A stretch of 62,731 nt of DNA, the filler included, from an uncultured bacterium (lineage in GTDB: Bacteria > DYJV01), in the NCBI GenBank assembly GCA_964543655.1. It is 4 parts of 4 records of this genome, joined end to end, with 100 filler letters (N's around TTAATTAATTAA, not from the genome) between each part and the next. Parts side by side here need not be neighbours in the genome. Positions count along the whole stretch, not along the records: positions 1 to 26,261 come from CAZIZE010000077.1; 3 more parts are not named here. One strand, written 5' to 3'. The notes under the pieces were generated by a model that had not been told where the DNA came from, did no database searches, and saw only the letters and a list, made by a program, of their open reading frames with translations. Below are positions 3,750 to 56,521 of the stretch, piece by piece. Position 1 is the stretch's first letter. Each line of letters opens with the position of its first letter. A program made the translations under genes and the position numbers.

Positions 3750-5060
3750 ATGAAAAAAATTGTTTTACTGATTTTGGCTTTTTTTATTTTTGCAGGTGTG
3801 CCGAGTATTTCAAAAGCAGCATCAACAGAGGAGTTAATGCAACAAATTAAGATGCTTCAACAAAAATTAATGGAACTTGAAAAAAAGGTAGAGCATCAGC
3901 AAGCTTCAATAGAGGAAACCAAAAAAAATCAGGAAGAAATCAAGGAAGCTTCTGAAATGTTAAAAACATTAAAGGATCATATCTCAATTGGAGGAGTTGT
4001 AGAGGTTGAGGCGAATTATACAGGGATTGATAATAAAAAAATTTCAGGAGATGCAAGTAGTGATATAACACTTGCAACAGCCGAACTTGATATCGAAGCT
4101 AAACTTCACAAATATGCAAGTGCAAATATGGTATTTTTGTGGGAAGAAGATGACACTGAGCCTGTGGACATAGATGAAGGATATATTACACTTGGTAATA
4201 CTGATTATTTCCCTTTATATTTAAAAGCAGGTAGGATGTATGTACCATTTGGAAATTTTGAAACAAACTTTGTTAGTGATCCTCTTACTCTTGAGCTTGG
4301 TGAAATTCAAGAATCTGCATATCTCTTTGGTGCTTTTTATAAAGGAATAGATTTTTCTGTTTACTTTTTTAACCCAGATATTAATGAAAATAGCGATAAT
4401 AATGAAGATATTATTAAATCCTGGGGTGCAACTTTAAGTATAGAATTTGGACCTGCTTCACCTGGGGAACCTGGAAGTGAAGCAAGGGAAAGTTACAATA
4501 ACCATATTTTAAATATTTTACCAGAAGAAACAAGTCTAACTATTCAATTATCATATTTAAATAATTTAGCTGATACAGATGATTTCAAAGATGCTTTTAG
4601 TGATAATGGCTGGGGAAGTAGTGTAAAAGATTATGTTGGTGCTTTTCATGCATTTTTAATGGCAGAAGCATATAATTTTAATTTTATTGCAGAGTATGTT
4701 GGAGCAACAGATAATTTTGATAAAACTGATTTTGGTGGAATTGGTAAAAAATTTCAACCAAAAACATGGAATTTTGAATTAGGTTATACTTTCCCATATT
4801 GGAATGAAAAAGAAATGACTCTTGCTATTAAGTATGAAGGCTCAGATGATGCTGCTTTTATTGATCCAGAATTATTTATGGAGAAACAGTATGGTATTGC
4901 TGTTTCTACAAATTTATTTTCCAATGAAAAGTGGGGTACAAATGTTAACTTGAACATTGAATATCTACATGGTGAAGCTGATGATGATATTGTTAAATTT
5001 CTTGGAGAAAGTATAGATTCAAAAGATTCTGTTACTGTTCAATTACAAGCAGAATTTTAA
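3750..5060 (+). CDS. LbtU-family outer-membrane porin-like protein
   Basis: Signal peptide, N-terminal coiled coil, DITLATAEL...DIDEGYITLG...LYLKAGRMYVPFG...SDPLTLELGE pattern, C-terminal Phe; ATG at 3750 after GGAGG. Confidence 0.75.
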   Translation: MKKIVLLILAFFIFAGVPSISKAASTEELMQQIKMLQQKLMELEKKVEHQQASIEETKKNQEEIKEASEMLKTLKDHISIGGVVEVEANYTGIDNKKISGDASSDITLATAELDIEAKLHKYASANMVFLWEEDDTEPVDIDEGYITLGNTDYFPLYLKAGRMYVPFGNFETNFVSDPLTLELGEIQESAYLFGAFYKGIDFSVYFFNPDINENSDNNEDIIKSWGATLSIEFGPASPGEPGSEARESYNNHILNILPEETSLTIQLSYLNNLADTDDFKDAFSDNGWGSSVKDYVGAFHAFLMAEAYNFNFIAEYVGATDNFDKTDFGGIGKKFQPKTWNFELGYTFPYWNEKEMTLAIKYEGSDDAAFIDPELFMEKQYGIAVSTNLFSNEKWGTNVNLNIEYLHGEADDDIVKFLGESIDSKDSVTVQLQAEF

Positions 5061-9671: not shown

Positions 9672-9947
9672 ATGAATGAAAAAATTTGGTTAATAATCGG
9701 TTTAACAGGCCAGATATTTTTTTGTTTGAGATTTTTAATTCAATGGATTATATCAGAAATAAAAAAATCAAGTATAATTCCTGTTAATTTTTGGTATTTT
9801 AGCATAATTGGAAGCTTTTTCCTCTTAAATTATGCAATTTATCGAAAAGATATTGTTTTTATTAGTGGTCAATTATTTGGAATAATAATTTATTTTAGAA
9901 ATTTAATATTAATAAGCAGAAAAGAAAATGAGAATTTTAATAGTTGA
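9672..9947 (+). CDS. Lipid A biosynthesis N-terminal (LAB_N) domain membrane protein
   Basis: GLTGQIFFCLRFLIQWIISE...IPVNFWYFSIIG...YAIYRKDIVFISGQ...IYFRNL. Confidence 0.85.
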   Translation: MNEKIWLIIGLTGQIFFCLRFLIQWIISEIKKSSIIPVNFWYFSIIGSFFLLNYAIYRKDIVFISGQLFGIIIYFRNLILISRKENENFNS

Positions 9948-10599
9948 AGATGAAAAAGGTTTATCAGAAGAATTAAAAAAAACTCTTGAAAATGAAATGT
10001 TTACAGTATCTACTGTATTTAATGGCAGTGATGCTATTGATAAAATTCTTTCAGAAAAGTTTGATTTGATTATTCTTGATTTAATGTTACCTGAAATTGA
10101 TGGTTTTGAAGTGCTAAAATTTATTAGAGAAGAAAAGGTAAAAACACCTGTATTAATTCTCACAGCAAAAGGACAGATTGACGATAAAGTAAAAGGCCTT
10201 GACCTTGGTGCTGATGATTATCTCACAAAGCCTTTTTCTGGTGTTGAATTACTTGCAAGAATCAGAGCTATTCTACGCCGCTCAGGTGGAGAGTCTGAAA
10301 ACATAATCTTTACAGAAAATTTAAAATTAAATATCAAAACAAAAGAAATATTTTTTAAGCAAATCAAACTGGATTTAACACCAAAAGAATACGCTATCCT
10401 TGAATTTTTAATTTTAAATAAAGGTAAGCCTGTATCAAAGTATGATATTGCTGAGCATGTTTGGGGCGACTCTTATGACATATTTTCTACCTCAAACTTT
10501 GTTGAAGTCCATGTAAAAAATATTAGAAAAAAATTTCAAAAATTAACCAATCACATTATAATAAAAACATTGAGAGGATTTGGATATAAGATTAATTAA
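9928..10599 (+). CDS. OmpR-family response regulator
   Basis: ILIVEDE, DLMLP, GADDYLTKPF and winged-helix TLRGFGY. Confidence 0.95.
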   Translation: MRILIVEDEKGLSEELKKTLENEMFTVSTVFNGSDAIDKILSEKFDLIILDLMLPEIDGFEVLKFIREEKVKTPVLILTAKGQIDDKVKGLDLGADDYLTKPFSGVELLARIRAILRRSGGESENIIFTENLKLNIKTKEIFFKQIKLDLTPKEYAILEFLILNKGKPVSKYDIAEHVWGDSYDIFSTSNFVEVHVKNIRKKFQKLTNHIIIKTLRGFGYKIN

Positions 10600-12267: not shown

Positions 12268-12304
12268 AACAAAAAATGTCGTGCAATTCGACAAAATTGT
12301 CGAA
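12268..12304. promoter_or_regulatory. Putative enhancer (UAS) for a sigma54 activator
   Basis: Near-perfect palindrome TTCGACAAAATTGTCGAA (12287-12304) plus partial site AACAAAAAATGTCG centred 21 bp upstream; matches 55108-55147. Confidence 0.8.
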
Positions 12305-12345
12305 TGCTCAACCATTAAAACCTTGTGATTTAAACATGTTACAAC

Positions 12346-12361
12346 TGGCACGATGGTTGCA
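12346..12361 (+). promoter_or_regulatory. Sigma54 (-24/-12) promoter
   Basis: TGGCAC-GATGG-TTGCA, consensus match, ending 43 bp before ATG 12405. Confidence 0.88.
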
Positions 12362-12404: not shown

Positions 12405-12683
12405 ATGAAGAAAAAAATTATAGTTGGACTTCTTGCTGGCACAATGCTTTTAAGCAGTTTGCCATTAATGGCGAGAGGTTATGGAAAAGGTTACATGGGT
12501 GGAAGAAATAGTAATTACACTCAGCCTTCAGGGGTTCAGGCATATCAAGGGTACGGTGATGGGACAATGCCAAGGCCTATGGATGGCACTGGTTTTGGTG
12601 CTCAAAGCAGTAATTTTAGAGGTAAAGGTCAAAGATTAAGAGATGGTTCATGTTTAAATAACACAACCACAACAACACAATAA
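12405..12683 (+). CDS. Small exported Gly-rich protein with GDGTMPRPMDGTGFG and LRDGSC motifs
   Basis: Sec signal, AGGAGG RBS, paralogue at 54174-54457. Confidence 0.85.
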   Translation: MKKKIIVGLLAGTMLLSSLPLMARGYGKGYMGGRNSNYTQPSGVQAYQGYGDGTMPRPMDGTGFGAQSSNFRGKGQRLRDGSCLNNTTTTTQ

Positions 12684-12702
12684 AAATTAAAGGAGGAAAA
12701 AA

Positions 12703-13431
12703 ATGAAAAAAATTTTATCAGTAGCAGTATTAATTATTTTGGCAATGTCTGTTAGTTTAATGGCTCAACCAAGATGGGGAAATGCTAATGCTCAAAGAGG
12801 TGCAGGATTGTACAATGCAATATCTTCACTACCTGTACAAGATTTAAATGATGCTGAAAAAGCTGGGTTATTAAAAATGAGACAAGAGGAAAAATTGGCA
12901 AGAGATGTATATTTAAAGCTTTATGAAAAATGGGGACTTCAAGTGTTTGCGAACATAGCAAATAGTGAGCAGAGACATATGGATGCAGTTAAAATGCTTC
13001 TTGAAAAATATGGAATTTCTGATCCAGTAGTTGATGACTCTGTTGGAGCATTTAGTGATACTGAATTTACAAATCTTTACAATGAGCTTGTTGCTACAGG
13101 TGAAGCATCTGAAGTTGCTGCATTAAAAGTTGGAGCGGAGATAGAGGATCTTGATATTGCAGATCTTGAAAACTTAATAAATAGTAGTGATAATGATGAT
13201 ATAAAATTTGTTTATGATAGATTGATGAATGGCTCATATCATCATATTAAAGCTTTTTCAGCTATGCTTCAAAATTATGGTGAAACTTATACACCAAAAT
13301 ATATTTCAGAGGATAAATACAATGAAATACTTTCATCCTCTACACAAATGCAGAGAGGCTATGGTAGAAGAGGTAGAGGTGCTGGAATGGGATTAAGAGA
13401 TGGCTCATGCCTGTATAATACAAACCAATAG
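12703..13431 (+). CDS. Exported DUF2202 ferritin-like protein with Gly/Arg-rich LRDGSC tail
   Basis: Signal peptide; EEKLARDVY...F.NIA.SEQRHM...GAEIEDLDIADL...GS.HH..AF. Confidence 0.85.
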   Translation: MKKILSVAVLIILAMSVSLMAQPRWGNANAQRGAGLYNAISSLPVQDLNDAEKAGLLKMRQEEKLARDVYLKLYEKWGLQVFANIANSEQRHMDAVKMLLEKYGISDPVVDDSVGAFSDTEFTNLYNELVATGEASEVAALKVGAEIEDLDIADLENLINSSDNDDIKFVYDRLMNGSYHHIKAFSAMLQNYGETYTPKYISEDKYNEILSSSTQMQRGYGRRGRGAGMGLRDGSCLYNTNQ

Positions 13432-13439
13432 TTTTTCTT

Positions 13440-13472
13440 AAAGTTCAAGGTTTTAAAACCTTGAACTTTTTT
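13440..13472 (+). terminator. Perfect 30-bp palindrome with T tail (rho-independent terminator); second hairpin at 13478-13497
   Basis: AAAGTTCAAGGTTTT/AAAACCTTGAACTTT followed by TTT; AGAGCCC-CCT-GGGCTCT-TTT. Confidence 0.7.
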
Positions 13473-13664
13473 GTTATAGAGCCCCCTGGGCTCTTTTATG
13501 TTTTACAAGATTTTCAACTTAAAATGATCACTTTTTGTGGTATATAAAAACACTCGTTAACAAATTGGTGTTTGTTTATAAATTTAGATTTATATTATTT
13601 GCAATTGTCTGTTATTAAAATATTTTTCAAGTTTATATTATTAACTATTAACAGAGGAGGAAAT

Positions 13665-14246
13665 ATGTCTTTAAGAAGATTAACATCTTTAATGATTTTA
13701 TTTATAGGGGTTATTTTAGTTATCTCTGGAGTTATATTATTTATTATGCCCCATGGAAGAGTAGCATATTGGACTGATTGGAGATTTTTAGGACTCAATA
13801 AAGATCAATGGAGTTTATTACACGTTATTTTTTCCATTATTTTTATATTACTTTTTGCACTTCATACTTTTTTTAATATAAAACCTCTAATTCATTACTT
13901 TAACAAATCTAAAAAAGAATTACTTTTATCTTTTTTAATAATAACTTTCTTAACAGTTGGCTCTATATTTACTTTTTTTCCTTTTAATGCTGTAAAAAAT
14001 TTTGAAGAAAAGGTTAAAAACTCCTGGATTGATAATAAAATTGCTCCTAAAATTCCACATGGAGAGTTGATGACATTAAAAAAATTATCCAAAAGAATAG
14101 GCATTAAACCTAACATAGCTCTAAAAAGATTAAATGAAAATGGTATAAAATATAATTCATTAAATGATACCATTCAACATATTGCAAAAATAAATGGCAA
14201 AAAACCAATAGAAATATATAAAATAATAAAAACAAATTCTAAGTGA
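13665..14246 (+). CDS. DUF4405-type membrane protein
   Basis: SGVILFIMPHGRVAYWTDWRFLGLNKDQW..LH...LH; ATG 13665 after GAGGAGG. Confidence 0.75.
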   Translation: MSLRRLTSLMILFIGVILVISGVILFIMPHGRVAYWTDWRFLGLNKDQWSLLHVIFSIIFILLFALHTFFNIKPLIHYFNKSKKELLLSFLIITFLTVGSIFTFFPFNAVKNFEEKVKNSWIDNKIAPKIPHGELMTLKKLSKRIGIKPNIALKRLNENGIKYNSLNDTIQHIAKINGKKPIEIYKIIKTNSK

Positions 14247-14266
14247 ATTTAGTTAAAAAAAAATTA

Positions 14267-14307
14267 TTGACATTTGCATATTTGTATTATATTGCAAATA
14301 TGCAAAT
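14267..14307. promoter_or_regulatory. Sigma70-type -35 overlapped by a 13-bp inverted repeat (probable ArsR operator)
   Basis: TTGACA 14267-14272; ATTTGCATATTTG-N10-CAAATATGCAAAT. Confidence 0.65.
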
Positions 14308-14330
14308 TATATAAACAGAAAGGATTTACA

Positions 14331-15071
14331 TTGATTTTACTTTCATTACTTGCATTTTTATTTAGTTTTCTTTTTTCTCTTGGAGGTATTGGAGCTGCAA
14401 TAGTTCTTGTTCCTATTATGTATGCTTCAGGCATTCCTCTTAATCAGGCAAAAGCCACAGGACTTTTCTACAATACAATTAGCCTTGCTGGTGCAAGTTA
14501 TTTAAATATAAAAGAAAAAAGACTCGATTTTAAAATAGGGCTTCCTTTAATTATTTTTTCACTTATTTTCGCACCTGTTGGTGCTTATCTTTCAAGTTTT
14601 GTTTCTCACAAGATTGTATTAATAATTTTCATACTGTTTCTTCTTTTTTCCACATCAGTAATGTGGTTTTTCAAAAGCAAAAATTATCAAAAGAATTATA
14701 GAGAAGATAGACCTTTTGTAATATTATCTATTATTGGGATTGTTGTAGGAATTGTATCAGGCTTGCTTGGAGTAGGAGGAGGCGGATTAATATCACCTAT
14801 TATGATTATTCTGGGCTTTAATCCAAAAAAAGTTGCAGCTATTACTGCTTTTGTAGTACCCTTTTCATCTTTTTCTGGATTTTTAACCTATTTTGCAATG
14901 GGTAGCGTAAATTTTAAAATTCTTGCTTGTGTAACAATTTCAGGTTTTTTTGGTGCATTTTTAGGTACCTCAGTTATGCAAAAAAAATTCAAGCCAGATA
15001 CTGTTAAAAAATTGCTGGGAGTAATACTTTTAATCCTTGCAATAAAAATGCTTCTAAAGCTTTTAAATTAA
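14331..15071 (+). CDS. TauE/SafE (TSUP) family membrane transporter
   Basis: Two GxGGG-type repeats (SLGGIGAA, GLLGVGGGGLISP), about 8 TM helices; probable TTG start after AAAGGA. Confidence 0.85.
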   Translation: MILLSLLAFLFSFLFSLGGIGAAIVLVPIMYASGIPLNQAKATGLFYNTISLAGASYLNIKEKRLDFKIGLPLIIFSLIFAPVGAYLSSFVSHKIVLIIFILFLLFSTSVMWFFKSKNYQKNYREDRPFVILSIIGIVVGIVSGLLGVGGGGLISPIMIILGFNPKKVAAITAFVVPFSSFSGFLTYFAMGSVNFKILACVTISGFFGAFLGTSVMQKKFKPDTVKKLLGVILLILAIKMLLKLLN

Positions 15072-15085
15072 ACAGGAGGTGTAAA

Positions 15086-15733
15086 ATGTTTGAAAAAAGG
15101 ATGCAACTTATAAATTCAATTTCATCTTTATCAGATGAAGAAAAAGAAATCCTCTATTCAGCTCTTAACATTCATGGACATATGTGTGGTGGAATGCCAT
15201 TAGGTTTTACAGCTGGCAAATTTGCTTTAAAGATTTTAAATAGCAGTAGAGAGCGTAACATGGATAAGCTTGTTATTATGTTTACTGGAGAAAGACATGC
15301 AGCAGGATGTTTTGCAGACGGCGTTCAATTTGCAACAGGATGTACATTTGGAAAAGGTATAATGAAAAAAGAGCCAAAAGGGAAATTTGGATTTTTACTT
15401 ATTAAAAAAACAATGGAAAAAGCTGTTAAAGTTAGTGTTAAGCCTGAAGTAATGTTAAATGCTTTTAAATCTCCTTTTATTGAAATGAGAAAAAAGGGTA
15501 TAAAACCTACTGACATTCCATCTGAATTATCTGAAAAAATGTTTTTAAATCCTTTTAATAAAAATCCAGAGGAGCTTTTTAATTATGAAGGCCCTTTTAA
15601 TTTCTCAGTAAAAAAAGGGAAATCTTGCTTTAACATTGTTATTTGTGATAAGTGTAGAGAAGCAGTTGCTGAAAATTACATTAATCTTGAAAATGGAAAA
15701 AAGGTATGCTTGGACTGCTGGTCTTTTAGGTAA
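15086..15733 (+). CDS. FmdE-family protein with C-terminal Zn finger
   Basis: HGHMCGG, CFADGVQFATGCTFGKG, CDKCRE...CLDC. Confidence 0.85.
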   Translation: MFEKRMQLINSISSLSDEEKEILYSALNIHGHMCGGMPLGFTAGKFALKILNSSRERNMDKLVIMFTGERHAAGCFADGVQFATGCTFGKGIMKKEPKGKFGFLLIKKTMEKAVKVSVKPEVMLNAFKSPFIEMRKKGIKPTDIPSELSEKMFLNPFNKNPEELFNYEGPFNFSVKKGKSCFNIVICDKCREAVAENYINLENGKKVCLDCWSFR

Positions 15734-15746
15734 AACAGGAGGAAAA

Positions 15747-16085
15747 ATGCAATATTTAGAATTAGAAGAAAAATATAAAGAATGGGCAAATCTTTTAAAA
15801 TCATTAGCTCATCCTGTAAGGTTGTTTATAATAGAGCTTCTTGCACAAGGTGAGAGAAGTGTTAATGATATTGAAAAAAATTTACATATTGATGTATCAA
15901 CTGTTTCAAGGCATCTTTCTACCTTAAAAAGAGCAGGTATAATAAATGATAAAAAAAAGGGAAATAAGGTTTTTTATTCATTAAAAATTCCTTGTGTATT
16001 AAATTTTTTTAAATGTACAGAACAGGTTCTAAATGAACAATTAATACGTAAAATTAAAATATTAAGCAATGTTAAAAAGAAATAG
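15747..16085 (+). CDS. ArsR/SmtB-family transcriptional regulator
   Basis: LKSLAHPVRLFI, STVSRHLSTLK, KGNKVFYSL, PCVLNFFKC; ATG after AGGAGG. Confidence 0.9.
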   Translation: MQYLELEEKYKEWANLLKSLAHPVRLFIIELLAQGERSVNDIEKNLHIDVSTVSRHLSTLKRAGIINDKKKGNKVFYSLKIPCVLNFFKCTEQVLNEQLIRKIKILSNVKKK

Positions 16086-16087
16086 TT

Positions 16088-16208
16088 ATACAAAACCAAT
16101 TGCAAAATCCAACAGCAATTTTTTTACAACTGATTCTATTTACCACAAAAGCTGTCATTTTGAGGGCGTTAGTCCGAAAAATCTTTTGTTTCAAGGTTGG
16201 TTTTGTAT
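16088..16208. mobile_element. 121-bp MITE-like element with perfect 12-bp terminal inverted repeats
   Basis: ATACAAAACCAA...TTGGTTTTGTAT; internal GTCATTTTGAGGGCGTTAGTCCGAAAAATCT; homologous copies elsewhere in the window. Confidence 0.65.
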
Positions 16209-16282
16209 TAGTTGGTAAATGCTGGTTGGTGATTAAAGTAAAGTCATTAACTTTGAACCATAAACAATTATGGGAGGATTAA

Positions 16283-17527
16283 ATGAGATATTTTTTTATT
16301 TTCTTTTTGTTTATTTTTTTTTCTATTAATTTAAATGCTCTTACACTTGAGCAGGCATTAAAAATGGCTTTAAAATATAATCCAGCTATTAATCAAACTT
16401 CTCTGAATATCTCAATTCAGAAAAAAAGAACTGCACAAATTGAATCATCACAATTTGGAGAAATTGATGCTATTGCAAAATATAACAAAACTGACTACCC
16501 ACAAGCCTTACAGCCATTAAACATGAGGCACCTTGCCAAAGATGTACTTTCAGTTGGAATCAACTACCAGGTGCCGCTATTTACTGGATTTGAAATAACA
16601 AAATCTATTGAGATTTCAAAATTAAATGAAAAAATTTTTAAAATAGCAAATAATCTAACTAAAAATCAGGTTATTTTTAATATAAAATCAGTTTATTATA
16701 AAATACTTTCTTTAAAAAAGCAGCTTATTGCAATGAATAGTTATAAAAATTCCCTTAATAAGCTTTTCCAAGATGTTAAGTTAATGGTTGAAACTGGAAA
16801 AAAGCCAGAGGTTGACCTTTATAAAATAAGTTATGATGTAAAAAGTGTTGATGCTACTATCTCATCAATTAAAAATAACATAGACACTTTAAAATACACC
16901 TTAAAAGAACTTATTGGCAAAGATAATCTAATTATTAATAATATTCAAGATATTACTTTAACAAAAAATTTTAAACCTGAAAAAATTTCATACAACAAAT
17001 TACCATCTTTGGAACAATTATCAACCAAAAGTAAAATTTCAAAAAAAAATATAGCAAAAACTAAGTCAGCATATTATCCAAAACTTTATCTAAATGCGGA
17101 TACTTTTGAAAATTATGGAAAGGGAGATGATTTAAATATATGGCAAATTACATTGGATTTAAAGTTTAATATTTTCGATTTTGGAAAAACTAAAAACAGT
17201 GTTAAAGAAGCCATACTTGAAAAGCAAAAAATTGAGTTTGAAAAGCTTCAGACAAAATTAAAAAAAGAAAAAGATATAAGAGATGCTATTAATAGAATTA
17301 AAACTGAAAAAAATAATATTGATGCATTAAAGCAGCAGGTAAAATTCGCAAAAGAGTCTGAAAGAATAGAAAAGATGAAATATGAAGAGGGAGTGAGTCA
17401 AATATATGATTACCTGTATGCAAAAAGTAGAAGATATATAGCTGAAAGCAATTTTTATGACTCTCTTTATAAAAGAGAAACAGCAATTGCCTATTATGAC
17501 TATGTAATTGAAAAATATGCTAAATAA
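16283..17527 (+). CDS. TolC-family outer-membrane efflux protein
   Basis: Signal peptide, LTLEQALKMAL..NP, VPLFTGF, YYPKL; precedes adaptor and RND genes. Confidence 0.88.
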   Translation: MRYFFIFFLFIFFSINLNALTLEQALKMALKYNPAINQTSLNISIQKKRTAQIESSQFGEIDAIAKYNKTDYPQALQPLNMRHLAKDVLSVGINYQVPLFTGFEITKSIEISKLNEKIFKIANNLTKNQVIFNIKSVYYKILSLKKQLIAMNSYKNSLNKLFQDVKLMVETGKKPEVDLYKISYDVKSVDATISSIKNNIDTLKYTLKELIGKDNLIINNIQDITLTKNFKPEKISYNKLPSLEQLSTKSKISKKNIAKTKSAYYPKLYLNADTFENYGKGDDLNIWQITLDLKFNIFDFGKTKNSVKEAILEKQKIEFEKLQTKLKKEKDIRDAINRIKTEKNNIDALKQQVKFAKESERIEKMKYEEGVSQIYDYLYAKSRRYIAESNFYDSLYKRETAIAYYDYVIEKYAK

Positions 17528-17549
17528 ACATAAATCTGGAGGAAATATT

Positions 17550-18737
17550 ATGAAAAAAACTTTAAAAATCATTATACCTATTCTTATTATTGCCTTACTT
17601 GGATTATTTGCAATTAAAAAGATAAAATCTCGAAAAATAGAAATTGCAAAAACACCTTCTGCGAAACTACCTGTTTACACAGTAAAAGCAGTTAAAATAA
17701 AAAAGGGGAGCATTTATGTAACCCAGCAATATCTTGGAATAATTGAGCCTGACAAATCTGTAAACATTGCTTCTAAATTTTCTGGGTTTATTAACAAAGT
17801 TTATGTAACAGAGAATCAAGTTGTTAAAAAAGGTGACTTGCTTGTAAAAATAGATGATAGAGATATAAAATTTCAACTTAAAAACCTTGGTAATACAAAA
17901 TATTCACTTAAAGCCCAAAGAGAAGCTTTAAAAGCTGAGTTAAAAGGTGCTCTCTCAAGATTAGAATACCTAAAGAATAAATTTTATAGAGATAAAAAAT
18001 TATTTGAGGGTAAAGCTATATCAAGGGAAAATTTTGACCTTTCCAAAACTTTATATGAAGAAGGGAAATCAAGAGTTGCAACAATTAGAAGCAATATTAC
18101 AGCTTTTAATAAAAAGATAAAATCAATTAATTCGCAGATAGCTATTCAGAAAAATAATTTAAAATACACTAATATCTACTCTGATATAAATGGAATTGTA
18201 ACAAAAATTTTCCTTCATGAAGGGAATATTGCCATGCCAGGCAAACCTATTATGAATATTGAAACTACTGAAAATTATAAAATTTTGGTAAATATCCCTG
18301 AAAAACAGGCAATGTCTATAAAACCTCATAACAAGGTTATTATTAATTTTTCTGATAAACCAATAACTTCTGAAATTAAAAAAATTTATCCTAAATCAAA
18401 CAACAATTCTCTTGTAACTGCTGAAATAAGAGTTAAAAGCCTTCCCAAAAATATTGCAACCAATTCTTATGTTAATGTTAAAATATTTATTAAAAAAATT
18501 AGCGGATTAATTGTTCCAATAGATTCTGTTTTGCAGTTAACTAATGGAACATATCTGTTAAATGTTGAAAATGGGAAAATTAAAAAAATTTTAGTTAAAA
18601 TAATAACAAAGAATGACAAATTTGCTATTGTAAAAGGGAATATAAAAGCTGGAATTCCTGTGATAACAGCAATGGAAAATAAACTTAGATTACTATCTTT
18701 TGGAGTAAAAGGTAAATTAAATATATTAACTCAGTAA
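17550..18737 (+). CDS. RND efflux periplasmic adaptor (MFP)
   Basis: IASKFSGFINKVYVTENQVVKKGDLLVKID, IYSDINGIV; ATG 17550 after GGAGG. Confidence 0.88.
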   Translation: MKKTLKIIIPILIIALLGLFAIKKIKSRKIEIAKTPSAKLPVYTVKAVKIKKGSIYVTQQYLGIIEPDKSVNIASKFSGFINKVYVTENQVVKKGDLLVKIDDRDIKFQLKNLGNTKYSLKAQREALKAELKGALSRLEYLKNKFYRDKKLFEGKAISRENFDLSKTLYEEGKSRVATIRSNITAFNKKIKSINSQIAIQKNNLKYTNIYSDINGIVTKIFLHEGNIAMPGKPIMNIETTENYKILVNIPEKQAMSIKPHNKVIINFSDKPITSEIKKIYPKSNNNSLVTAEIRVKSLPKNIATNSYVNVKIFIKKISGLIVPIDSVLQLTNGTYLLNVENGKIKKILVKIITKNDKFAIVKGNIKAGIPVITAMENKLRLLSFGVKGKLNILTQ

Positions 18738-18760
18738 TTAATGAAAGGGGTAAGGTTTTA

Positions 18761-21700
18761 ATGAATAAAATTTTAAATAACAAACATTTTATTTTTGCAA
18801 TCTTAATAGGCTTAACTTTTATTGGAATAATAGGTTTTTTTAATATAAAACAGAATCTTTTCCCAGATACAGATAGACCACAAATTTCAGTGGTAATAAT
18901 AGAAAAAGGCGCATCAGCAAAAGATATGGCAGAAAATGTTGCTATCCCGGTGGAAAAAGAGCTATATACTCTTGATAAGATTAGAAAGGTAAGCTCCACA
19001 TCTAATGATGAATTTACAGTAATAACAGCAGAATTTGAATATGAAAAAAGTCTTGGTGATGCTGCAACTGACGTTGCCAATGCATTAAACAAAATCAAGG
19101 GAAAGTTACCAGCAGATATAGAGCCTCCACAAATTTACAAAATATCTTCTGCTACAGCACCTGTTATAGTTATAACAGTGTCTCCTAAAAAAGGCACAAA
19201 TTTAAGCCTTGCAGATGTGAGACAGATTGCAGAAAATCAGATTAAAGATAAATTATTAAAATTGAAAAATGTTGCTAATGTTGACGTATTTGGTGGATAT
19301 AAAAAAGAAGTTTTCATAAAAATAGATAAAAACAAATTGAACAAATATAATTTAAGTCTATTTAATGTTATTACTCAAATTAGAAAATTTAATGCTGACA
19401 TACCAGTAGGTTTTATAATTAACAAAAAGAAACAATTTCTTGTTAAAGCAAATAATAAATCTATAAAAATAGATCAATTAAAAAATATTTATATTACTAA
19501 GGATATAAAATTATCAGATATTGCTCAAATTAAATATTCTTATAAAGAAAATAATGCTCTCTATTTTGGTAATGGTGCTCCTGGGATAGCTCTTGCAATT
19601 CAAAGGCAAATTGGAGGAAGTGTTCTTGACGCAATAAAATCTGTAAAAAAAGTTTTACCTGAATTAAAAAAAGAGTATCCTGCACTTAAATTTTCTATTT
19701 CTGATACTCAGGAAAAAATAATAAAATTAAGCAATATAAATATGCTTGAAGCTTTACGAGATGCAATTATAATGACTGCAATAGTAGTGTTTTTCTTTCT
19801 TGCAAACATTAGACAGCTATTTATTGTTGGCCTTTCCATACCATTTGTTTATATAGTTACTATAGCATTTATGTGGTTGCTTGGAATAGAATTTAATATT
19901 GTTACATTAACTGCAATTATTCTTGCTCTGGGACTTTTAATAGATGATGCTGTTGTTATTATTGAAAATATTGAACGGCACTATTATGAGTTAAAAAAAC
20001 CAATTAAAAAAGCTGTAATAGAAGGCACAAGAGAAGTTTTACTTGCAGATTTCTCTGGTACAGTTTCAACAATGGCAATGTTATTTCCTATACTATTTAT
20101 AGGAGATTATCCTCAGCGAATTTTTAGACCTTTTTGTGGCACTTTATTACTAGCATTAGTTGTTTCCTATTTTGTTTCTGTTACCTTTATTCCCATTATA
20201 GCAACTTATTTATTAAAAAAGAACAATGAAAAAAATATATTGGAAAAGTTTTCTTACAGAATACTTCAGTTTTTTCTTCAACCATTTCAAAATTTTATAA
20301 TAAGTGTAGTTAAAACTGTTCTTAACAAAAGATTTTTAATGCTCCCTCTTACAATTCCATTAATTGCTCTCTTTGTAATATCAATGAGAGTTTTAATTCC
20401 TCTACTTGGAAGTGAATTAATGCCTCCTATGGATACAGGTATTGTAAAAGCAAAAATTACCTATGATAGCAATTTATCAGATAAAGTAATTGAAAATAAA
20501 GTTAAGCAGGTTTTAAAAATTTTAAATTCTGACAAAAATGTATTGATGACTTCTCTATCAGTGGGCTCTGAGCCTGGTGTTTTATCAGTTGGTAAAGGAG
20601 GTTCACCTCAATCAATCAGTCTCACAATACATTATATAGATAGATTTCACAGAAAAAAAACAATCTGGCAGATAGAAGATCAATTGAGAGATAAATTGTG
20701 GAAAATTCCTGATACAAAATATGTAGAGGTTTTTGACTATGGTGCTACACCATTGTCAACAATTAAAGGAAATCTCGATGTTATGATTACAGGGAATGAT
20801 TTAAAGACAATAGATAAAATTGGAAATGATATATTAAAAAAATGCTATAATGTAAAGGGTATTACATCATGCTCAAGAACATGGGATATGGATAAAGTTT
20901 CTTACAATCTTGAATTTAATCCAAAAATTTTAAATTATTACAAAATCACTCCTTATGATATTGCAACACAGTTGAGCACCAAAATTACAGGCTCTTTTGT
21001 TTCCTTAATGAATGTTCAAAATGAAAATTCTCTTAAAATAAGATTAATTTATGAAAAAAAACAGAGAAACTTTCTTGAAGATTTAAATTCATTTTACATT
21101 GATACTCCTTCTGGTAAAATTCCATTAACTGCATTGGTAAAATTCAAAAAAATTATAGAACCTACTGTTATTTCAAGGCAAGGATTAAAATATTCACTTG
21201 ATGTTATAGGTTATAGACAAAAAGCTGCTATTACTCACATAGTTGAAAGTTTTAAAAAAGAAGTTAAAAATTATAAAATACCTGATGGCTATAAAATGTC
21301 AAATGAGGGCGATCTGAAACAGCTAAAGGATTCTATGGGAAGAATGATTAAAGGTTTTTTAATTGGACTTGTACTTCTTTTCCTTACCATGGTACCTATT
21401 TTTAAATCATTTAAAAGCCCTGTTGCCATATTTGTAGCTATTCCTCTATCAATGCTTGGTGGTATATGGGGATTATTTTTCTGGAACTATCATAGGGCTA
21501 TGCCTGCTGTTATGGGACTTATTTTGCTTGCAGGGATTATTGTAAATAATTCAATATTATTAATAGATTTTATTCAAGAAGCACTGCAAAAAGGTACAGA
21601 TATAAAAGATGCTATTATCAATAGTATAAAAATTAGGACAAGACCTGTGTTAATGACTGCTTTTGGAACTGCTGTTGGAATGCTTCCCATTGCAATGGGA

Positions 21701-50765: not shown

Positions 50766-52259
50766 TTAATTATCTGTAATTATTTTAAACTCTATAACAT
50801 CTCCTTCTACTGTACAGGAAATTTCCCAGTTATGAGATTCAACTATTTTTTTTACAATTGCAAGCCCAAGACCAGACCCTTTAATTTTGGTTGTGTAATA
50901 TGGCTCAAAAATTTTTTCACAATCAATTTTTTTTAATACTCCATTATTTTCAAAAGTTATAATATTATCCTTTGCTGAAATTTTTAAAAGAGTAGTTTCT
51001 CTATTTTCATAAGCATTTTTTATTAAATTGGTAAATAACTGCTTCATTAAGTTTTTATCAGCATTAATAAAAAAGTTATCATTAATGTTAATTGAAATTT
51101 CCAAATTAGAATTTTTGAAAAAAGATAAAATCTCTGAAATCAGATTTTTCAATAATATTTTTTCTTTATTAACTTTTAATGGCTTAGAATAATCAAGAAA
51201 AAGTTCAATTGTATTGTTTATTCTGGATAATTCTGCTATCATAGTGTTAATAAGATTCAAGTATTCGTCATCTTCTGATAATTCTGTTTCATATTTTAAT
51301 CTTTGAAGCCCCATGCTTACAACATTTACAGGATTTCTAATTTCATGTGCAATTAGAGCTGCACTTCTACCAAGTGATGCATATTTTTCCTGTGTAAAAA
51401 GTTTTCTTTCATAATTTTGAAGAGATTGAAAATATTTTTTTTGCAAAATATAGAGTAAGATACTGACAACTATTGCTACAACTATAATGACACTTAAAAA
51501 AACTATTAGGTTATGTTTAAAATTTTTTATTATTTTTACCCCATGAGTTGCATCAATTGTTATTTGAATAATTTTACCATTAACTCCTTTAAAAGGTAAA
51601 GTTACAATAAAATATTTGTCCTGCTTCAAAACTATCTTCATTTTATTTAAATTACCATTTATTATCTTTATATTAATAACTTCTTTTCTATGGCTGACTA
51701 TTGCTTTAATTAGATTGTCTATGGTAAATTTTTTTTTTGCCTGAAAATATTTAGCTGCTGTTATACCTGTAATTATAAAAGCCTTTGAGTATTTTCCTTT
51801 GTAATTGTATAATATAAGATTATTTTCCTTGTGAAAAATAATTTTATCTGGAGTATTATTATAAATTTTATAAAAAAATTTACTTACAGGAACATTTGAG
51901 TAACCTATTATTTTCTTATTTTTTCCAAAAGGGACAATGTAAATTAATGCAAGATTTGTTTCTTTTGAGAACTCTTTAAGCTCATCATAGTTAAATGGCT
52001 CTATTGAATTAAGTAGATCAATAAATTTAGCTTGAGATTTGAGATTATTTTCTATTATTGAAATGATAAAGTTATTTGACCTATACAGCTTTGTTGCTGC
52101 AATCTCAAAACGTTTTGCAATTGATTCAGCTTCTGTTTTAACTAAAAGGTAAACCTCTTTTTTTAAATTCAGATAGTGATTATAATAATGGAACATTATA
52201 ATAGAGATTAATAGTAAAAAAAATATAATATTCCAAACAAAAAATTTAATGTCTTTCAA
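50766..52259 (-). CDS. Sensor histidine kinase (ZraS/NtrB-like)
   Basis: Two TM helices, IAHEIRNP, NLIKNA, FEPYYTTK..GSGLGL. Confidence 0.9.
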   Translation of the reverse strand: MKDIKFFVWNIIFFLLLISIIMFHYYNHYLNLKKEVYLLVKTEAESIAKRFEIAATKLYRSNNFIISIIENNLKSQAKFIDLLNSIEPFNYDELKEFSKETNLALIYIVPFGKNKKIIGYSNVPVSKFFYKIYNNTPDKIIFHKENNLILYNYKGKYSKAFIITGITAAKYFQAKKKFTIDNLIKAIVSHRKEVINIKIINGNLNKMKIVLKQDKYFIVTLPFKGVNGKIIQITIDATHGVKIIKNFKHNLIVFLSVIIVVAIVVSILLYILQKKYFQSLQNYERKLFTQEKYASLGRSAALIAHEIRNPVNVVSMGLQRLKYETELSEDDEYLNLINTMIAELSRINNTIELFLDYSKPLKVNKEKILLKNLISEILSFFKNSNLEISININDNFFINADKNLMKQLFTNLIKNAYENRETTLLKISAKDNIITFENNGVLKKIDCEKIFEPYYTTKIKGSGLGLAIVKKIVESHNWEISCTVEGDVIEFKIITDN

Positions 52260-52268
52260 TTTTAATCC

Positions 52269-53222
52269 CTAAAAATTGATTCCCACAACTATTTCAGATA
52301 TATATTTTGTATAACTTTCACCCTCCTTGTTTGAGCTATCTCTATCTGATTCAAAAGTGAGCCCAATATAATATTTTTCTGAAAGTAGATAGATTATACT
52401 ACATTGCAAAGATAGGAAATACTCTCTTCTGTCTGCTTTATAATAATTAAGATAACCTGATACAGCTGCTAAATCAAGATTAAAAGAATTTATATTAGCT
52501 GAATATTCAAGAGAGAGTTGAATATTTTGATACTTTTCATATTTAATGTTGCTGTTATTCAAAGTAAAACTTGGTGTAATTATAAAGTTTTTCAATGAGT
52601 ATTCTATTGAAAAATTATGCGAAAGGTCTTTTTCATATTTTTGACTTAAAAATGAATCAATAAAAGATTTAAATCTTTCTCTCTTTTTATAATTGTCAGA
52701 AGAGGAAGTTTTTAATTTAAAAATAGTTCTTAGATTGTATAATACATAATCATCATACTGATACTTTTCAATAAAGTAATCATACTCTATTCTATAGGAA
52801 AACTTTAATCTTCTTAAATTTAAGCTAAAGTTGTTATAAATTCCAAGATAGCTATTGGTATTGTCATTGTTATCTTTTAAATATGTAATACCAGCAGCAT
52901 AATCAAACTTATTTTTGAAACTATACTTAAAGTTGCTGTTTAGATATAGGTCATTTTTTAAACTATAATACTTTGAAAATTCAGCAAGAATTGTTAACTC
53001 TATTGGATTTTTTGGAAAGATATAATTATCAATTAAGGAAATTTTATTATACCATGAATTTATTTTATTACTTTCAGTTTCTAAGATATTGGAATTGTAG
53101 CCTGTTGATATTTCTGTATTAAAAATATTTTCTGCAAATATGTTATTTTTTATGGCGACGACTATTAAAATGAGGACGAGAATTTTTCCTAATTTTATGA
53201 AAAGATTTTCTCTGCTCTGCAA
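52269..53222 (-). CDS. Probable outer-membrane beta-barrel protein (start uncertain)
   Basis: Signal-like segment, TGYNSNI, Tyr/Asn-rich amphipathic strands, C-terminal Phe. Confidence 0.6.
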   Translation of the reverse strand: MQSRENLFIKLGKILVLILIVVAIKNNIFAENIFNTEISTGYNSNILETESNKINSWYNKISLIDNYIFPKNPIELTILAEFSKYYSLKNDLYLNSNFKYSFKNKFDYAAGITYLKDNNDNTNSYLGIYNNFSLNLRRLKFSYRIEYDYFIEKYQYDDYVLYNLRTIFKLKTSSSDNYKKRERFKSFIDSFLSQKYEKDLSHNFSIEYSLKNFIITPSFTLNNSNIKYEKYQNIQLSLEYSANINSFNLDLAAVSGYLNYYKADRREYFLSLQCSIIYLLSEKYYIGLTFESDRDSSNKEGESYTKYISEIVVGINF

Positions 53223-53526
53223 GTTTTCTAATCCTTTCCCTGATTCTTAAACATCTACAATTTGGATTTTTATTAAAATTATTTTCAGTTTTTAATATTA
53301 ATGTGTCACCCTCCTTTAACTGAGATATTTTACTCTTGTCAAGGTATAATGTTTCAATTTTATTATTTTTTGAATTTAAAATTTTTATTTGGTTATCTTT
53401 TATTTCCAGAACTTTTCCAGAAAAGTTTGTGTTAATATTGCTATCTTGAATTATAACATCTTTTGCAGATAAAGTTGTCCGGGTAAATAGAAATATTAAT
53501 GAAATGATAAAAAGTTTTTTTATCAC
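53143..53526 (-). CDS. Exported hypothetical protein with basic C-terminal tail
   Basis: Signal peptide, small beta domain (GKVLEI...LKEGD), CRC and Arg/His-rich tail. Confidence 0.6.
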   Translation of the reverse strand: MIKKLFIISLIFLFTRTTLSAKDVIIQDSNINTNFSGKVLEIKDNQIKILNSKNNKIETLYLDKSKISQLKEGDTLILKTENNFNKNPNCRCLRIRERIRKLAEQRKSFHKIRKNSRPHFNSRRHKK

Positions 53527-53629: not shown

Positions 53630-54103
53630 CTATTTTGCGAAAGGGCATGTTGAATTATCAAATTTTCTCCCCATATATCCCCCTTTATTCATTCTGCCAT
53701 GTGCTCCTCTCCATAAAGGAAGAGTTGTGTCACTATCTCTCAAATTTAATTTTTTTCCATCACTTAGTGTTATATTTTTTAAAATATAATATAATTCACC
53801 ATTAATATCAAGTTTATAAACTTCAACATTAACTGTTTCACCAACTGTAGGTCTTTCTACTTGATTTTTTTGCCAATACCATATTGGTCCCAGTCCATAA
53901 ACTTTTATCTCCCCATTTTCAGTATCAAGTGTCATAGCTTGTCCTCTTTTCCCAATAAATGGTACAGGGACTGATATTACTTTACCTTCAATTTTTATTG
54001 TTTCTGCATTTTGCAAAATTGTTGAAAAGATTCCTCCTCTTGCAAAAGCTATTGTAGCAATTGTAAATAAAAAGAGCAAAGTTATTAAAAAATATTTTTT
54101 CAT
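53630..54103 (-). CDS. Exported OB-fold-like protein (LGPxWY type)
   Basis: Signal peptide; IEGKV...VYGLGPIWYW...VGETVNVE...LRD...PLWRG; Gly-rich Cys tail. Confidence 0.65.
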   Translation of the reverse strand: MKKYFLITLLFLFTIATIAFARGGIFSTILQNAETIKIEGKVISVPVPFIGKRGQAMTLDTENGEIKVYGLGPIWYWQKNQVERPTVGETVNVEVYKLDINGELYYILKNITLSDGKKLNLRDSDTTLPLWRGAHGRMNKGGYMGRKFDNSTCPFAK

Positions 54104-54173: not shown

Positions 54174-54457
54174 TTAATCTAAAATTTGTAAAATACTTTG
54201 ATTGTCACAGCTACCATCTCTTAACATTTGCCCATTTCCTTGCCTGTCATTGTTAGTTGCACCAAAACCTGTACCATCCATAGGTCTCGGCATAGTACCA
54301 TCTCCAAAACCATTTTGCAATAATTGTCCGCTTCCCTGAACAAAGTTAGCATTGTTACCCCGCCCATAAACCCTTTTCCATTTCCTCCTGCAAAGAGAGG
54401 TACCGCTACTAACATTGCTCCTAAGAGAATTCCTACTACTAATTTTTTTGCTTTCAT
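54174..54457 (-). pseudogene. Frameshifted paralogue of the 12405 protein (one base short in a G4 run; possibly a sequencing error)
   Basis: Adding one G at 54358-54361 gives 94 aa ...GKGFMGGGNNANFVQGSGQLLQNGFGDGTMPRPMDGTGFGATNNDRQGNGQMLRDGSCDNQSILQILD*. Confidence 0.85.
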
Positions 54458-54549: not shown

Positions 54550-55005
54550 TTATTTAACTATTTCCCATGTTCCATCGTCATTTCTGCAAGCAGTTGTTTT
54601 TACCTGTTTATATTCACCATTAATAACAGCCTGAATGTATGCATCTCTACATACTCTACCATCATTACTGGTGTATGCTGGTTCTGGTATTACTTCATAT
54701 TTGTTATGGTTATCAGGATTGACCCATGTTACTTTTTTGTGTGAAGGCACTTTTTCAAAGGTTTGATTTAATTTTTCTCTGTCATATTTATCCATTTCAT
54801 TACCAACTATATAACCGATAACAGCTCCTGCAAAAGCACCTATTATTGCATTTCTACTTCTGTGGCTTTTATCTCCAATCTGACCTCCAATTGCTGCACC
54901 ACCAAGCCCACCTATTGTGGAGCCAAGCTGAGCACTTGTACAGCTAAAAAGAGTAAATGATAAAGCTATTAAAATGAAAATTAGTGTAAGGTGATTTCTT
55001 TTCAT
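54550..55005 (-). CDS. 17-kDa surface-antigen-like lipoprotein (glycine zipper)
   Basis: Lipobox LFSC, glycine zipper, W.NPD, CR...TACR..DGTW. Confidence 0.85.
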   Translation of the reverse strand: MKRNHLTLIFILIALSFTLFSCTSAQLGSTIGGLGGAAIGGQIGDKSHRSRNAIIGAFAGAVIGYIVGNEMDKYDREKLNQTFEKVPSHKKVTWVNPDNHNKYEVIPEPAYTSNDGRVCRDAYIQAVINGEYKQVKTTACRNDDGTWEIVK

Positions 55006-55040: not shown

Positions 55041-55056
55041 ATCACAAAGTATGCCA
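55041..55056 (-). promoter_or_regulatory. Probable sigma54 promoter (imperfect -12)
   Basis: TGGCAT-ACTTT-GTGAT on the minus strand, 35 bp before ATG 55005. Confidence 0.55.
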
Positions 55057-55107
55057 AATAAAATATCCAGTAAAAACAATATATTTTGTTTGTGGCAGGT
55101 GTGATTG

Positions 55108-55147
55108 TTTCGACAAATTTGTCGAAATGAATTTCAAATTTGTCGAA
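55108..55147. promoter_or_regulatory. Putative enhancer (UAS) of the adjacent NtrC-family regulator
   Basis: Perfect 20-bp palindrome TTTCGACAAATTTGTCGAAA plus partial site TTTCAAATTTGTCG centred 21 bp away; TTGACA at 55157. Confidence 0.82.
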
Positions 55148-55192
55148 TAAAAAAATTTGACAATAAGAAACTTTTATTTTAGTGAAGAGATT

Positions 55193-56521
55193 ATGAAAAT
55201 ATTAATTATTGATGATGAAAAAGCACAAGTAGAATTATTAAGTGGATTTTTAAAAAAACAAGGTTTTTCTGTTATTACAACTACATCACCTGTAGAAGCA
55301 ATAGATATTGTAAAGAAAAATCATGTTAATCTTGTTGTGTCTGATTATAGAATGCCTGAATTTACCGGTGAAGAATTACTTGAAAAAATAAAAGAGATTA
55401 ACCCTGAAATTGGTTTTATATTAATTACTGCATTTGGTTCAATAGAAACTGCAGTAAATATAATGAAACTTGGAGCAGTAGATTTTATTGAAAAGCCAGT
55501 TGACTTAAAACTATTGTTAGAAAAAGTCAGAGAATATGAAGAAAGTTTTTTAACTAAAGAAACTGTAAAAGAGATAACAGAAAAGATAAATATAGATATT
55601 CCATTTAAAAATCCCAAAATATTAAAAATATATCAGACAATTTACAAAGTTGCTCCAAAAGATATAAATGTTTTTATAACCGGTGAAAGTGGTACAGGAA
55701 AGGAGGTTATAGCAAAAACTATTCATAAATTAAGTGAAAGAGCAAAAAAACCTTTTATTCCTGTTAACTGTGCTGCAATACCAGAGAATCTATTTGAAAG
55801 TGAACTTTTTGGTCATGAAAAAGGTGCATTTACAGGAGCAATTTCAGATAGAAAAGGAAAATTTGAGCTTGCAAATAGAGGTACTCTTTTTCTTGATGAA
55901 ATTGGAGAGATGCCTCTCCATTTACAGAGTAAGTTATTAAGAGCAATTCAAGAAAGAAAAATAGAGAAAGTTGGTAGTGAAAAAACAATTTCAATTGATG
56001 TGAGAATCATCTCTGCTACTAACCGTGATATAAAAGAGATGATTAAGAGTGGAGAATTTAGAGAGGATTTATACTATAGATTAAATGTAATTTCATTACA
56101 ATTGCCACCATTAAGGGAAAGACGTGAAGATATTCCTATTTTTATAGATTATTTTTTAAAAGAGTTTTCAAAATCAACAATATCAATTACTCCTGAAGCA
56201 AAAGATTTGTTGATAAAGTATCATTATCCAGGAAATATTAGGGAGCTTGAAAATATCATTCAAAGAGCTGTTGCACTTTGCAATGGAAAGACCATAGAAG
56301 TGAATGATTTACCTGAGGAAGTAAGGTTAGCGCAATTACTTGAAGAAGATGAAAGTACAACAGTTAATTTAAATAAAGAGATAGAGAGACTTGAGAAAAA
56401 ACTTATTTTAGAAGCACTTGAACAGCATAATTACAACAAAACACAAGCAGCAAAATATCTTGGTATTAATGAGAGAGTAATCCGTTACAAGATTGAGAAA
56501 TATAATTTAAAGAGAGGTTAA
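55193..56521 (+). CDS. Sigma54-dependent response regulator (NtrC/ZraR-like)
   Basis: REC domain, [25 protein letters not shown], Fis-type HTH. Confidence 0.94.

Follow-up and report, generated by a model that had tools for sequence, protein, structure and literature searches.

The window analysed here, i.e. the whole stretch of DNA of 62.7 kb, is composed of four contigs of one assembly, C77 (positions 1-26261), C78, C82 (from 43607) and C88, and comes from the genome G000 of an uncultured vent bacterium (2.26 Mb, 29.7% GC, 94% complete, 102 contigs). Runs of N lie at 26262-26360, approximately 43507-43606 and approximately 58114-58213, and proximity across these joins carries no meaning. 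The window contains two loci, locus 1 on C77 and locus 2 on C82, i.e. on separate contigs of the same assembly, in which a pair of palindromic sites (dyads) precedes a sigma-54 promoter and genes for extracytoplasmic proteins. Locus 2 also encodes an NtrC-family activator and a sensor histidine kinase, which probably control both units through these dyads. The sites, the genes directly behind the promoters and the two putative regulators are as follows.

Locus 1, 12268..12281, no strand: promoter-distal degenerate dyad AACAAAAAATGTCG, with the conserved half-site TGTCG at 12277-12281, 21 bp from the proximal dyad
Locus 1, 12289..12302, no strand: promoter-proximal perfect dyad CGACAAAATTGTCG, the proposed activator-dimer site, starting 58 nt before GG
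Locus 1, 12316..12328, plus strand: IHF-like element TAAAACCTTGTGA, centred 25 nt upstream of GG, with two mismatches to the consensus
Locus 1, 12346..12361, plus strand: sigma-54 promoter TGGCACGATGGTTGCA, with the -24 GG at 12347-12348 and the -12 GC at 12359-12360
Locus 1, 12405..12683, plus strand: small secreted Gly/Tyr-rich protein of 92 aa, with the core GDGT..PRPMDGTGFGA and the tail LRDGSC
Locus 1, 12703..13431, plus strand: secreted ferritin-like DUF2202 protein (Pfam PF09968, E 1.8e-59)
Locus 2, 55193..56521, plus strand: NtrC-family response regulator and sigma-54 activator, with REC domain, AAA+ domain containing GAFTGA, and Fis-type helix-turn-helix (HTH) with the helix NERVIRYKI
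Locus 2, 55132..55145, no strand: promoter-distal partial dyad TTTCAAATTTGTCG, 21 bp from the perfect dyad and 11 nt upstream of the TTGACA of the activator gene
Locus 2, 55111..55124, no strand: promoter-proximal perfect dyad CGACAAATTTGTCG, starting 69 nt before GG
Locus 2, 55074..55086, minus strand: IHF-like element AAATATATTGTTT (promoter strand), centred 25 nt upstream of GG
Locus 2, 55041..55056, minus strand: imperfect sigma-54 promoter TGGCATACTTTGTGAT, in which the -12 element reads TGA (consensus TGC)
Locus 2, 54550..55005, minus strand: glycine-zipper lipoprotein of 151 aa (Pfam Gly-zipper families), the first gene behind the promoter
Locus 2, 54174..54457, minus strand: small secreted protein paralogue with a frameshift at the GGGG run 54358-54361 of this assembly
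Locus 2, 53630..54103, minus strand: secreted OB-fold protein of 157 aa, of a MamS/MamX-like family with 340 relatives at E<=0.001
Locus 2, 50766..52259, minus strand: sensor histidine kinase with two membrane helices and the H-box AHEIRNP

Sigma-54 promoters follow the consensus TGGCACG-N4-TTGCW, with GG at -24 and GC at -12 in a fixed spacing, and they are opened only with the help of an AAA+ activator, a task of which OmpR- or ArsR-type proteins are incapable. The initial annotation of this DNA described a consensus sigma-54 promoter and a palindrome at locus 1, and indeed TGGCACGATGGTTGCA, one of only two such matches in the genome, agrees with the consensus at 12/12 positions and follows the perfect dyad at 12289-12302. 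The palindrome and imperfect promoter reported for locus 2 were likewise found, as the perfect dyad at 55111-55124 and an 8/12 match. A partial second site had been placed exactly 21 bp promoter-distal at each locus, where we also find it (TGTCG at 12277-12281 and the site at 55132-55145), and the reported palindrome-to-GG distances of 52 and 63 bp, measured from the dyad centre, are 51.5 and 62.5 bp. Both loci encode the same small protein family, again as described. The sigma-54 machinery of the genome comprises one rpoN gene, 13 activators and three HU/IHF-family genes.

CpG is strongly depleted in G000 (observed/expected 0.19), and as each dyad has two CpGs, the operator is nearly unique in this genome. 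The TGTCG pentamer occurs in 156 copies on both strands, and from its frequency about 0.003 copies of CGACA-N4-TGTCG are expected; the genome holds three. Three TGTCG-N16-TGTCG pairs are present versus about 0.005 expected, and they occupy the same three places as the dyads, while 100 shuffles of the analysed stretch yielded no dyad match. A chance origin of the dyads is excluded. The initial annotation had left room for a motif that is common at random positions; a genome scan retrieved only the three exact dyads, and the relatives carry dyads before sigma-54 promoters. Genome-wide, no other sigma-54-like promoter with a half-site cluster upstream was found. Four dyads with one mismatch, all of them intragenic and solitary, were taken as chance occurrences. 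Reversed-pattern controls, which gave at least as many matches as the real pattern, were discarded, GCTGT being 23 times commoner than TGTCG in the CpG-depleted genome. The rarest words of G000 are CTAG-containing pentamers.

The phylum is represented in the reference set by six species genomes only (G000-G005, G000 being the source of the window), and these are related to one another. Of the eight TGTCG-N16-TGTCG pairs in the six genomes, six stand before sigma-54 promoters of target genes, one is an orphan of G000 and one is intragenic; the last, an extra pair of G003 (contig C72), lies inside a gene, has no dyad and was set aside. The proximal dyad starts 58, 57, 57, 57, 56 and 58 nt before GG in six phylum promoters and 69 nt before it at locus 2; therefore, the helical phase is kept. 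Target homologues in the relatives lie on contigs with sigma-54 promoters in all cases (OB-fold protein 5/5, small protein 4/4, DUF2202 protein 2/2), and dyads are present on all of these contigs but one, which is cut at the contig end. Orthologues of the locus-1 promoter were found in G001 and G005, and those of the locus-2 promoter at the same place in G001, G002, G003 and G004.

The gene content behind these promoters varies around a common core. The activator gene adjoins dyads in G000, G001 and G002. In the latter two it diverges from a sigma-54 promoter that has two dyads, spaced by 21 bp, before it, and the leading target gene encodes the small protein (G001) or the OB-fold protein (G002). 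In G003, the operon behind dyads and promoter encodes two small proteins, the OB-fold protein, DUF4405, the small beta protein, the barrel protein and a kinase, whereas G004 has dyads and promoter before the OB-fold gene and a kinase-activator pair on another contig. The DUF2202 operon of G001 is preceded by the same dyads and a consensus promoter, with no OmpR pair beside it, and the DUF2202 copy of G005 starts at a contig end with the promoter.

The activator has the features of an NtrC-type enhancer-binding protein: Pfam domains Response_reg (6.9e-27), Sigma54_activat (1.4e-75) and HTH_8 (1e-13), the GAFTGA motif, Walker A GESGTGKE and Walker B LFLDEIGE. Its orthologues in G001-G004 are 63-71% identical to it, versus at most 48% for paralogues. 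The NERVIRYKI-type helix is common to the four orthologues with a complete C-terminus and is unlike that of all 12 G000 paralogues. The kinase has a periplasmic domain of about 225 aa, which matches no known family, and shares 45% identity with the kinase encoded last in the G003 target operon. A kinase gene directly precedes the activator gene in G004 and in at least seven metagenome loci (L097, L118, L128, L154, L160 and L167, and a second clade, L125/L127/L162).

The metagenome set consists of 80 loci returned by a scan with the alignment of the OB-fold protein. Upstream of the OB-fold gene, 14 of the 80 carry a dyad (one mismatch at most) and, 61-76 nt after it, a sigma-54 promoter; these loci contribute 15 sites in all and lie on contigs of 41-57% GC. 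A second TGTCGA lies about 20 bp promoter-proximal of these dyads; relative to GG, this second site begins about 70 nt and the full dyad about 90 nt upstream, the same geometry as at locus 2. Fourteen of the 80 loci have an activator match and 14 a kinase match, and nine of the activators are 45-54% identical over at least 300 residues. Wherever a contig extends far enough, the genes are arranged as follows: small Gly-rich protein, OB-fold protein, barrel-like protein, small beta protein, kinase, activator. The gene in first place encodes a homologue of the 92-aa small protein (pairwise E 6e-11 to 1e-4, calculated without composition correction). A genome contig scan with the activator returned only generic NtrC-family genes (38-50% identity), with a target-gene homologue nearby at 0/80 loci.

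The helix LGISERVLRYK[MI] is found on the module-linked activators of L097, L128, L154, L160 and L167 (contigs of 41-55% GC). A tree was calculated for 29 sequences, from which four shorter paralogues were omitted, as were the activators of L118 and L110, both partial. In this tree, the four phylum orthologues and the activators of these five loci form one clade (support 100/98), while the eight G000 paralogues placed, ten generic matches, true ZraR and true AtoC lie outside it. Three of the five metagenome activators of the clade (L128, L160 and L167) come from loci with a dyad and a sigma-54 promoter. L125, L127 and L162 have module-linked activators with another helix and have no dyad; L125 and L162 are placed elsewhere in the tree, and L127 is not among its sequences. 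The sites, their spacing and phasing, and the promoters are shown by these comparisons, as is the joint inheritance of activator clade, dyad and target genes.

Between dyads and promoter, the initial annotation had noted IHF-like AT tracts. The IHF consensus is WATCAANNNNTTR. Searched for anywhere in the spacers, it is found no more often than background in this AT-rich genome. At a fixed position about 25 nt upstream of GG, six of the seven phylum promoters match with at most two mismatches, versus 5.8% of random positions. This position was derived from the metagenome set, independently of the phylum promoters tested. The 15 metagenome spacers are 53-86% AT, and 8/15 match at one mismatch or less versus 13% of shuffled spacers, most of them in one orientation and about 26 nt upstream of GG. 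A protein-induced bend between enhancer and promoter is likely, as judged from the sequence.

Based on these observations, we suggest the following mechanism. The kinase (50766-52259) would sense the state of the periplasm and phosphorylate the activator (55193-56521) as its response regulator. Dimers of the phosphorylated activator would bind the two dyads, with the consensus CGACA-WWWW-TGTCG and centres 21 bp apart; as 21 bp corresponds to two helical turns, both dyads lie on the same face of the DNA. The bound dimers would assemble an AAA+ ring, and a bend at the IHF-like element, which precedes the -24 GG by about 25 nt, would let this ring reach the sigma-54 RNA polymerase and open the promoter. 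Unit 1 driven in this way would yield the small secreted Gly-rich protein and the ferritin-like DUF2202 protein (12405-13431), and unit 2, divergent from the activator gene, the glycine-zipper lipoprotein, the small-protein paralogue and the MamS/MamX-like OB-fold protein. Should transcription read through two internal hairpins, it would also reach the genes of the small beta protein and the outer-membrane protein and that of the kinase, creating positive feedback. We infer binding, activation, the pairing of kinase and regulator, and the bend from the arrangement described above. Our best guess for the signal is periplasmic iron, metal or redox stress, as the products are all extracytoplasmic and DUF2202 and DUF4405 proteins accompany iron-storage gene clusters.

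The outputs of the two loci appear linked in other lineages too, because the OB-fold and DUF2202 genes are adjacent in two metagenome loci and fused in one cluster of a protein atlas. In detail, the DUF2202 gene directly follows the OB-fold gene in L119 (2639-3658) and L149 (744-1946), and the atlas contains one MamS/MamX cluster fused to DUF2202.

We regard control of both units by this activator and kinase, exerted through dyads at sigma-54 promoters, as quite probable. Several findings weigh against it, however. The motif had been presented as defining two loci, which holds for the promoter-linked ones, but a third dyad pair, CGACAATTTTGTCG followed 21 bp away by AAACATTTTTGTCG, lies on contig C9 at 46255-46289 (L001 6256-6290). 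It is situated between the C-terminal piece of a CZB (zinc-binding) chemoreceptor and a 97-codon frame, 15 nt before the latter, and no sigma-54 promoter occurs within 400 bp of it on either strand at either expected distance. The frame has no orthologue in the relatives, and the neighbour of the pair is conserved only as part of longer chemoreceptor genes. As this third pair lacks a sigma-54 promoter and is not conserved, we consider it an orphan site, and such sites can exist without activation. Further points on the same side are that L097 and L154, although carrying activators of the clade, gave no pair of dyad and promoter in the scans; that the activator gene of G003 is unlinked to any dyad; and that no activator orthologue was found in G005 (92% complete). 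The locus-2 promoter TGGCATACTTTGTGAT is weak, having GG and the G of the -12 element but an A in place of the C, and a one-base frameshift in the GGGG run breaks the small protein encoded there. The 6/7 figure for the IHF-like element overstates independence, because the phylum genomes are related. Finally, the feedback onto the kinase is uncertain, since terminator-like hairpins follow both the small-protein gene and the OB-fold gene of locus 2. The chemoreceptor gene beside the third pair itself looks split (L001 7467-9314 and 6307-7284).

The locus-2 findings lend themselves to a different explanation, namely that only locus 1 works, locus 2 being a decaying copy whose sites mainly autoregulate the divergent activator gene. 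The 8/12 promoter, the frameshift at 54358-54361 and the position of the distal site 11 nt from the conserved TTGACA of the activator gene all fit such decay. Nevertheless, both the position of the promoter and its deviant -12 element (TGA or TGT) are kept in G001, G002, G003 and G005, which looks like a tolerated variant, and the 69/90-nt geometry is seen in 13 unrelated loci. The frameshift, in turn, may be an assembly error, because it falls in a homopolymer run and in a stretch uncovered by other assemblies: the contigs of X1, X2 and X3 leave 54342-54431 uncovered, and the identical metagenome contig L091 starts just short of it. The small-protein copies of G001, G003 and G005 are intact. 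We therefore find a decaying locus 2 unlikely.

Still less likely, in our opinion, is that the dyads are bound by another regulator, whether of the OmpR type, of the ArsR type or one of the other 12 sigma-54 activators, and that the adjacency of the activator gene at 55193 is accidental. An OmpR pair and an ArsR gene do lie close to locus 1 (the OmpR-type regulator at 9928-10599 and the ArsR-type regulator at 15636-16085), the genome has 13 activators to choose from, and the orphan site indicates that dyads are not always beside a sigma-54 promoter. Yet neither the OmpR pair nor the ArsR gene is present at locus 2 or at the orthologous loci of G001-G004. The dyads, in contrast, accompany the activator clade on unrelated contigs, and activators with another helix lack them. 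Moreover, as sigma-54 promoters need an AAA+ activator, an OmpR-type regulator cannot drive the promoter at 12346, and the same incapacity is established for ArsR-type proteins. The initial annotation had attributed both operons to the 55193 regulator and the 50766 kinase instead of the adjacent OmpR pair, and the comparisons support this attribution, through the co-occurrence of clade and dyad, the synteny of the kinase and the absence of the OmpR pair in G001.

A simple scan flagged TGTCG-N7-CGACA at 12277-12293 as terminator-like on the minus strand, and one could suppose on this ground that the palindromes have no part in regulation and represent a small dispersed repeat or a terminator hairpin. 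We give this hardly any credit: the stem has only five pairs and no minus-strand gene runs into it, the similarity between the loci is confined to the half-sites while the spacers differ, and the distance to sigma-54 promoters is fixed across lineages of 29-57% GC. The terminator was rejected as a by-product of the half-sites. Control of both units by the activator of locus 2 and its putative kinase thus remains our preferred interpretation.

The remaining features of the two loci are listed below.

Locus 1, 13440..13494, plus strand: two tandem terminator-like hairpins, probable end of the locus-1 unit
Locus 2, 55157..55188, plus strand: putative sigma-70-like promoter of the activator gene, with TTGACA, 17 nt, TAGTGA and 7 nt to ATG
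Locus 2, 53143..53526, minus strand: small secreted beta-rich protein of 127 aa, with syntenic homologues in G001, G003, L128, L109, L154 and L097
Locus 2, 52269..53222, minus strand: probable outer-membrane beta-barrel protein, with C-terminal Phe and alternating pattern, its start uncertain and its frame overlapping the preceding gene

The promoter of the activator gene keeps its geometry in the relatives, being TTGACA-17-TAATAA-7-ATG in G001 and TTGACA-17-TAGAAT-6-ATG in G002; the regions compared are 55157-55195 of the window, L003 ~1580-1627 and L002 ~4662-4710. With only 6-7 nt from the -10-like hexamer to ATG, the predicted transcript would be leaderless or nearly so.

The operon beginning at 12405 has the promoter and dyads ascribed to it, but the account needs correction in that the transcription unit probably ends after two genes, at the tandem hairpins; in G001 a convergent gene follows the DUF2202 gene. 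Beyond the hairpins (13572-21838) lie genes for DUF4405, TauE, an FmdE-like zinc-finger protein, the ArsR-type regulator and an RND efflux system, which are probably a separate unit. Given that DUF4405 is encoded within the G003 operon and beside the activator in L160, its adjacency to locus 1 may be functional. The observation itself is that a DUF4405 gene stands inside the sigma-54 operon of G003 and adjoins the activator gene in metagenome locus L160.

The 92-aa small protein is rare, with only 11 clusters in an index of 5.8 billion proteins, and shares with the DUF2202 protein a G-rich tail ending in LRDGSC. A Gly-rich stretch, a Cys and a short Asn/Thr/Gln-rich tail end both kinds of protein (12640-12683 and 13390-13431 in the window, L128 1268-1723, L109 1804-2226), examples being DGSCLNNTTTTTQ, DGSCLYNTNQ and GNRTN, and a Cys-bearing tail is also present on OB-fold proteins. 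Such tails could be a signal for sorting, modification or metal binding.

Searches of Pfam and NCBIfam gave no match for the small protein, and none for the OB-fold, small beta and barrel proteins of locus 2. The OB-fold protein was modelled with a predicted local distance difference test score (pLDDT) of 85.7 and gave structural matches to OB-folds. It resembles the MamS_MamX clusters of magnetosome proteins (Pfam PF26390): compared with the atlas clusters of this family, it has a feature score of 0.92 (192/256 features common) and a template modelling (TM) score of 0.53, the fold being a generic OB-fold, and it gave no match in the Pfam version used here. The product of 52269..53222 is a probable outer-membrane beta-barrel on the basis of its C-terminus and pattern, and proteins of about 370 aa are syntenic with it in distant modules. 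A gene for a SPOR-domain protein follows the kinase gene on the minus strand.

The closest functional parallel to this arrangement is ZraPSR of Escherichia coli, which likewise combines an NtrC-type activator with a periplasm-sensing kinase, has its binding sites between divergent genes and controls a very small regulon whose main output is small periplasmic proteins. The part of the source used here lists only zraP, zraSR and mgtA as direct targets of E. coli ZraR (PMC7657598). The initial annotation had called the system Zra-like but distinct. Its distinctness is borne out, as the activator scores 396 bits versus a ZraR cut-off of 760 (NF007689) and lies in the tree apart from true ZraR, which scores 925 bits; the likeness to Zra holds only as an analogy. 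Unlike in ZraPSR, the activator gene has a sigma-70-like promoter to itself and the kinase gene lies within the target cluster, and no target protein matched a ZraP/CpxP-type family, under these names, in Pfam or NCBIfam.

The tandem dyads on one helix face upstream of a -24/-12 promoter, the REC, AAA+ GAFTGA and Fis-type HTH architecture and the likely bend recall NtrC at glnAp2. Unlike NtrC enhancers, the dyads have another sequence, serve targets unrelated to nitrogen metabolism and stand nearer to the promoter, their centres preceding GG by about 51 and 72 nt or by about 62 and 83 nt. The domain architecture is also that of AtoSC, and AtoC and AtoS are the top-scoring NCBIfam models for activator and kinase. 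They were rejected as equivalogs, the scores being 470 versus a cut-off of 714 for AtoC and 137 versus 646 for AtoS; true AtoC is outside the clade and, unlike in AtoSC, no acetoacetate genes are present.

DUF2202 and DUF4405 proteins are described as conserved accessory proteins of ferrosome (fez) clusters, in which FezB is a P1B-6 ATPase with the motif D[YF]SCA (bioRxiv 10.1101/2020.01.10.902569, consulted in part). A six-frame search of the 94%-complete genome found neither D[YF]SCA nor DKTGT. Membership in the ferrosome was rejected, as there is no P-type ATPase motif and hence no FezB; the genome appears to lack any P-type ATPase. Unlike in ferrosomes and magnetosomes, the target proteins carry signal peptides, and no magnetosome genes were seen.

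In the literature searched, no paper links these target families to sigma-54. No matching operator appears in the text of a study of the Desulfovibrio sigma-54 regulome (PMC4641369, consulted in part), whose logos and supplements could hold a similar motif. Judging from the genomes compared, the same wiring recurs in unrelated bacteria and is very probably a genuine member, so far not described, of a well-known class of switches.

As a switch, the arrangement is a textbook one, combining a sigma-54 activator of the two-component type with enhancer sites in tandem and, probably, a bend. The comparisons assign a precise operator, a promoter geometry and a putative cognate kinase to a clade of activators that has no characterised member, and the rarity of the operator in a CpG-poor genome makes the regulon readable completely. 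The operator ties together families with no assigned function, i.e. DGTG peptides, MamS/MamX-like OB-fold proteins, DUF2202 and DUF4405, which occur together across 29-57% GC and are found elsewhere with iron organelles. It is possible, although we propose it only tentatively, that this is a widespread module whose output, a Gly-rich GDGT..RP.DGTG peptide with a Cys tail, an OB-fold protein, a small beta protein and a barrel, joined in some lineages by DUF2202 and a DUF4405 membrane protein, acts on iron or another metal outside the cytoplasm by binding, oxidising or nucleating it. It might thus be a periplasmic counterpart of the proteins of ferrosomes and magnetosomes, induced through the kinase once the metal reaches the periplasm. 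Any cultured organism that has the module would offer an entry point for finding the inducing signal.

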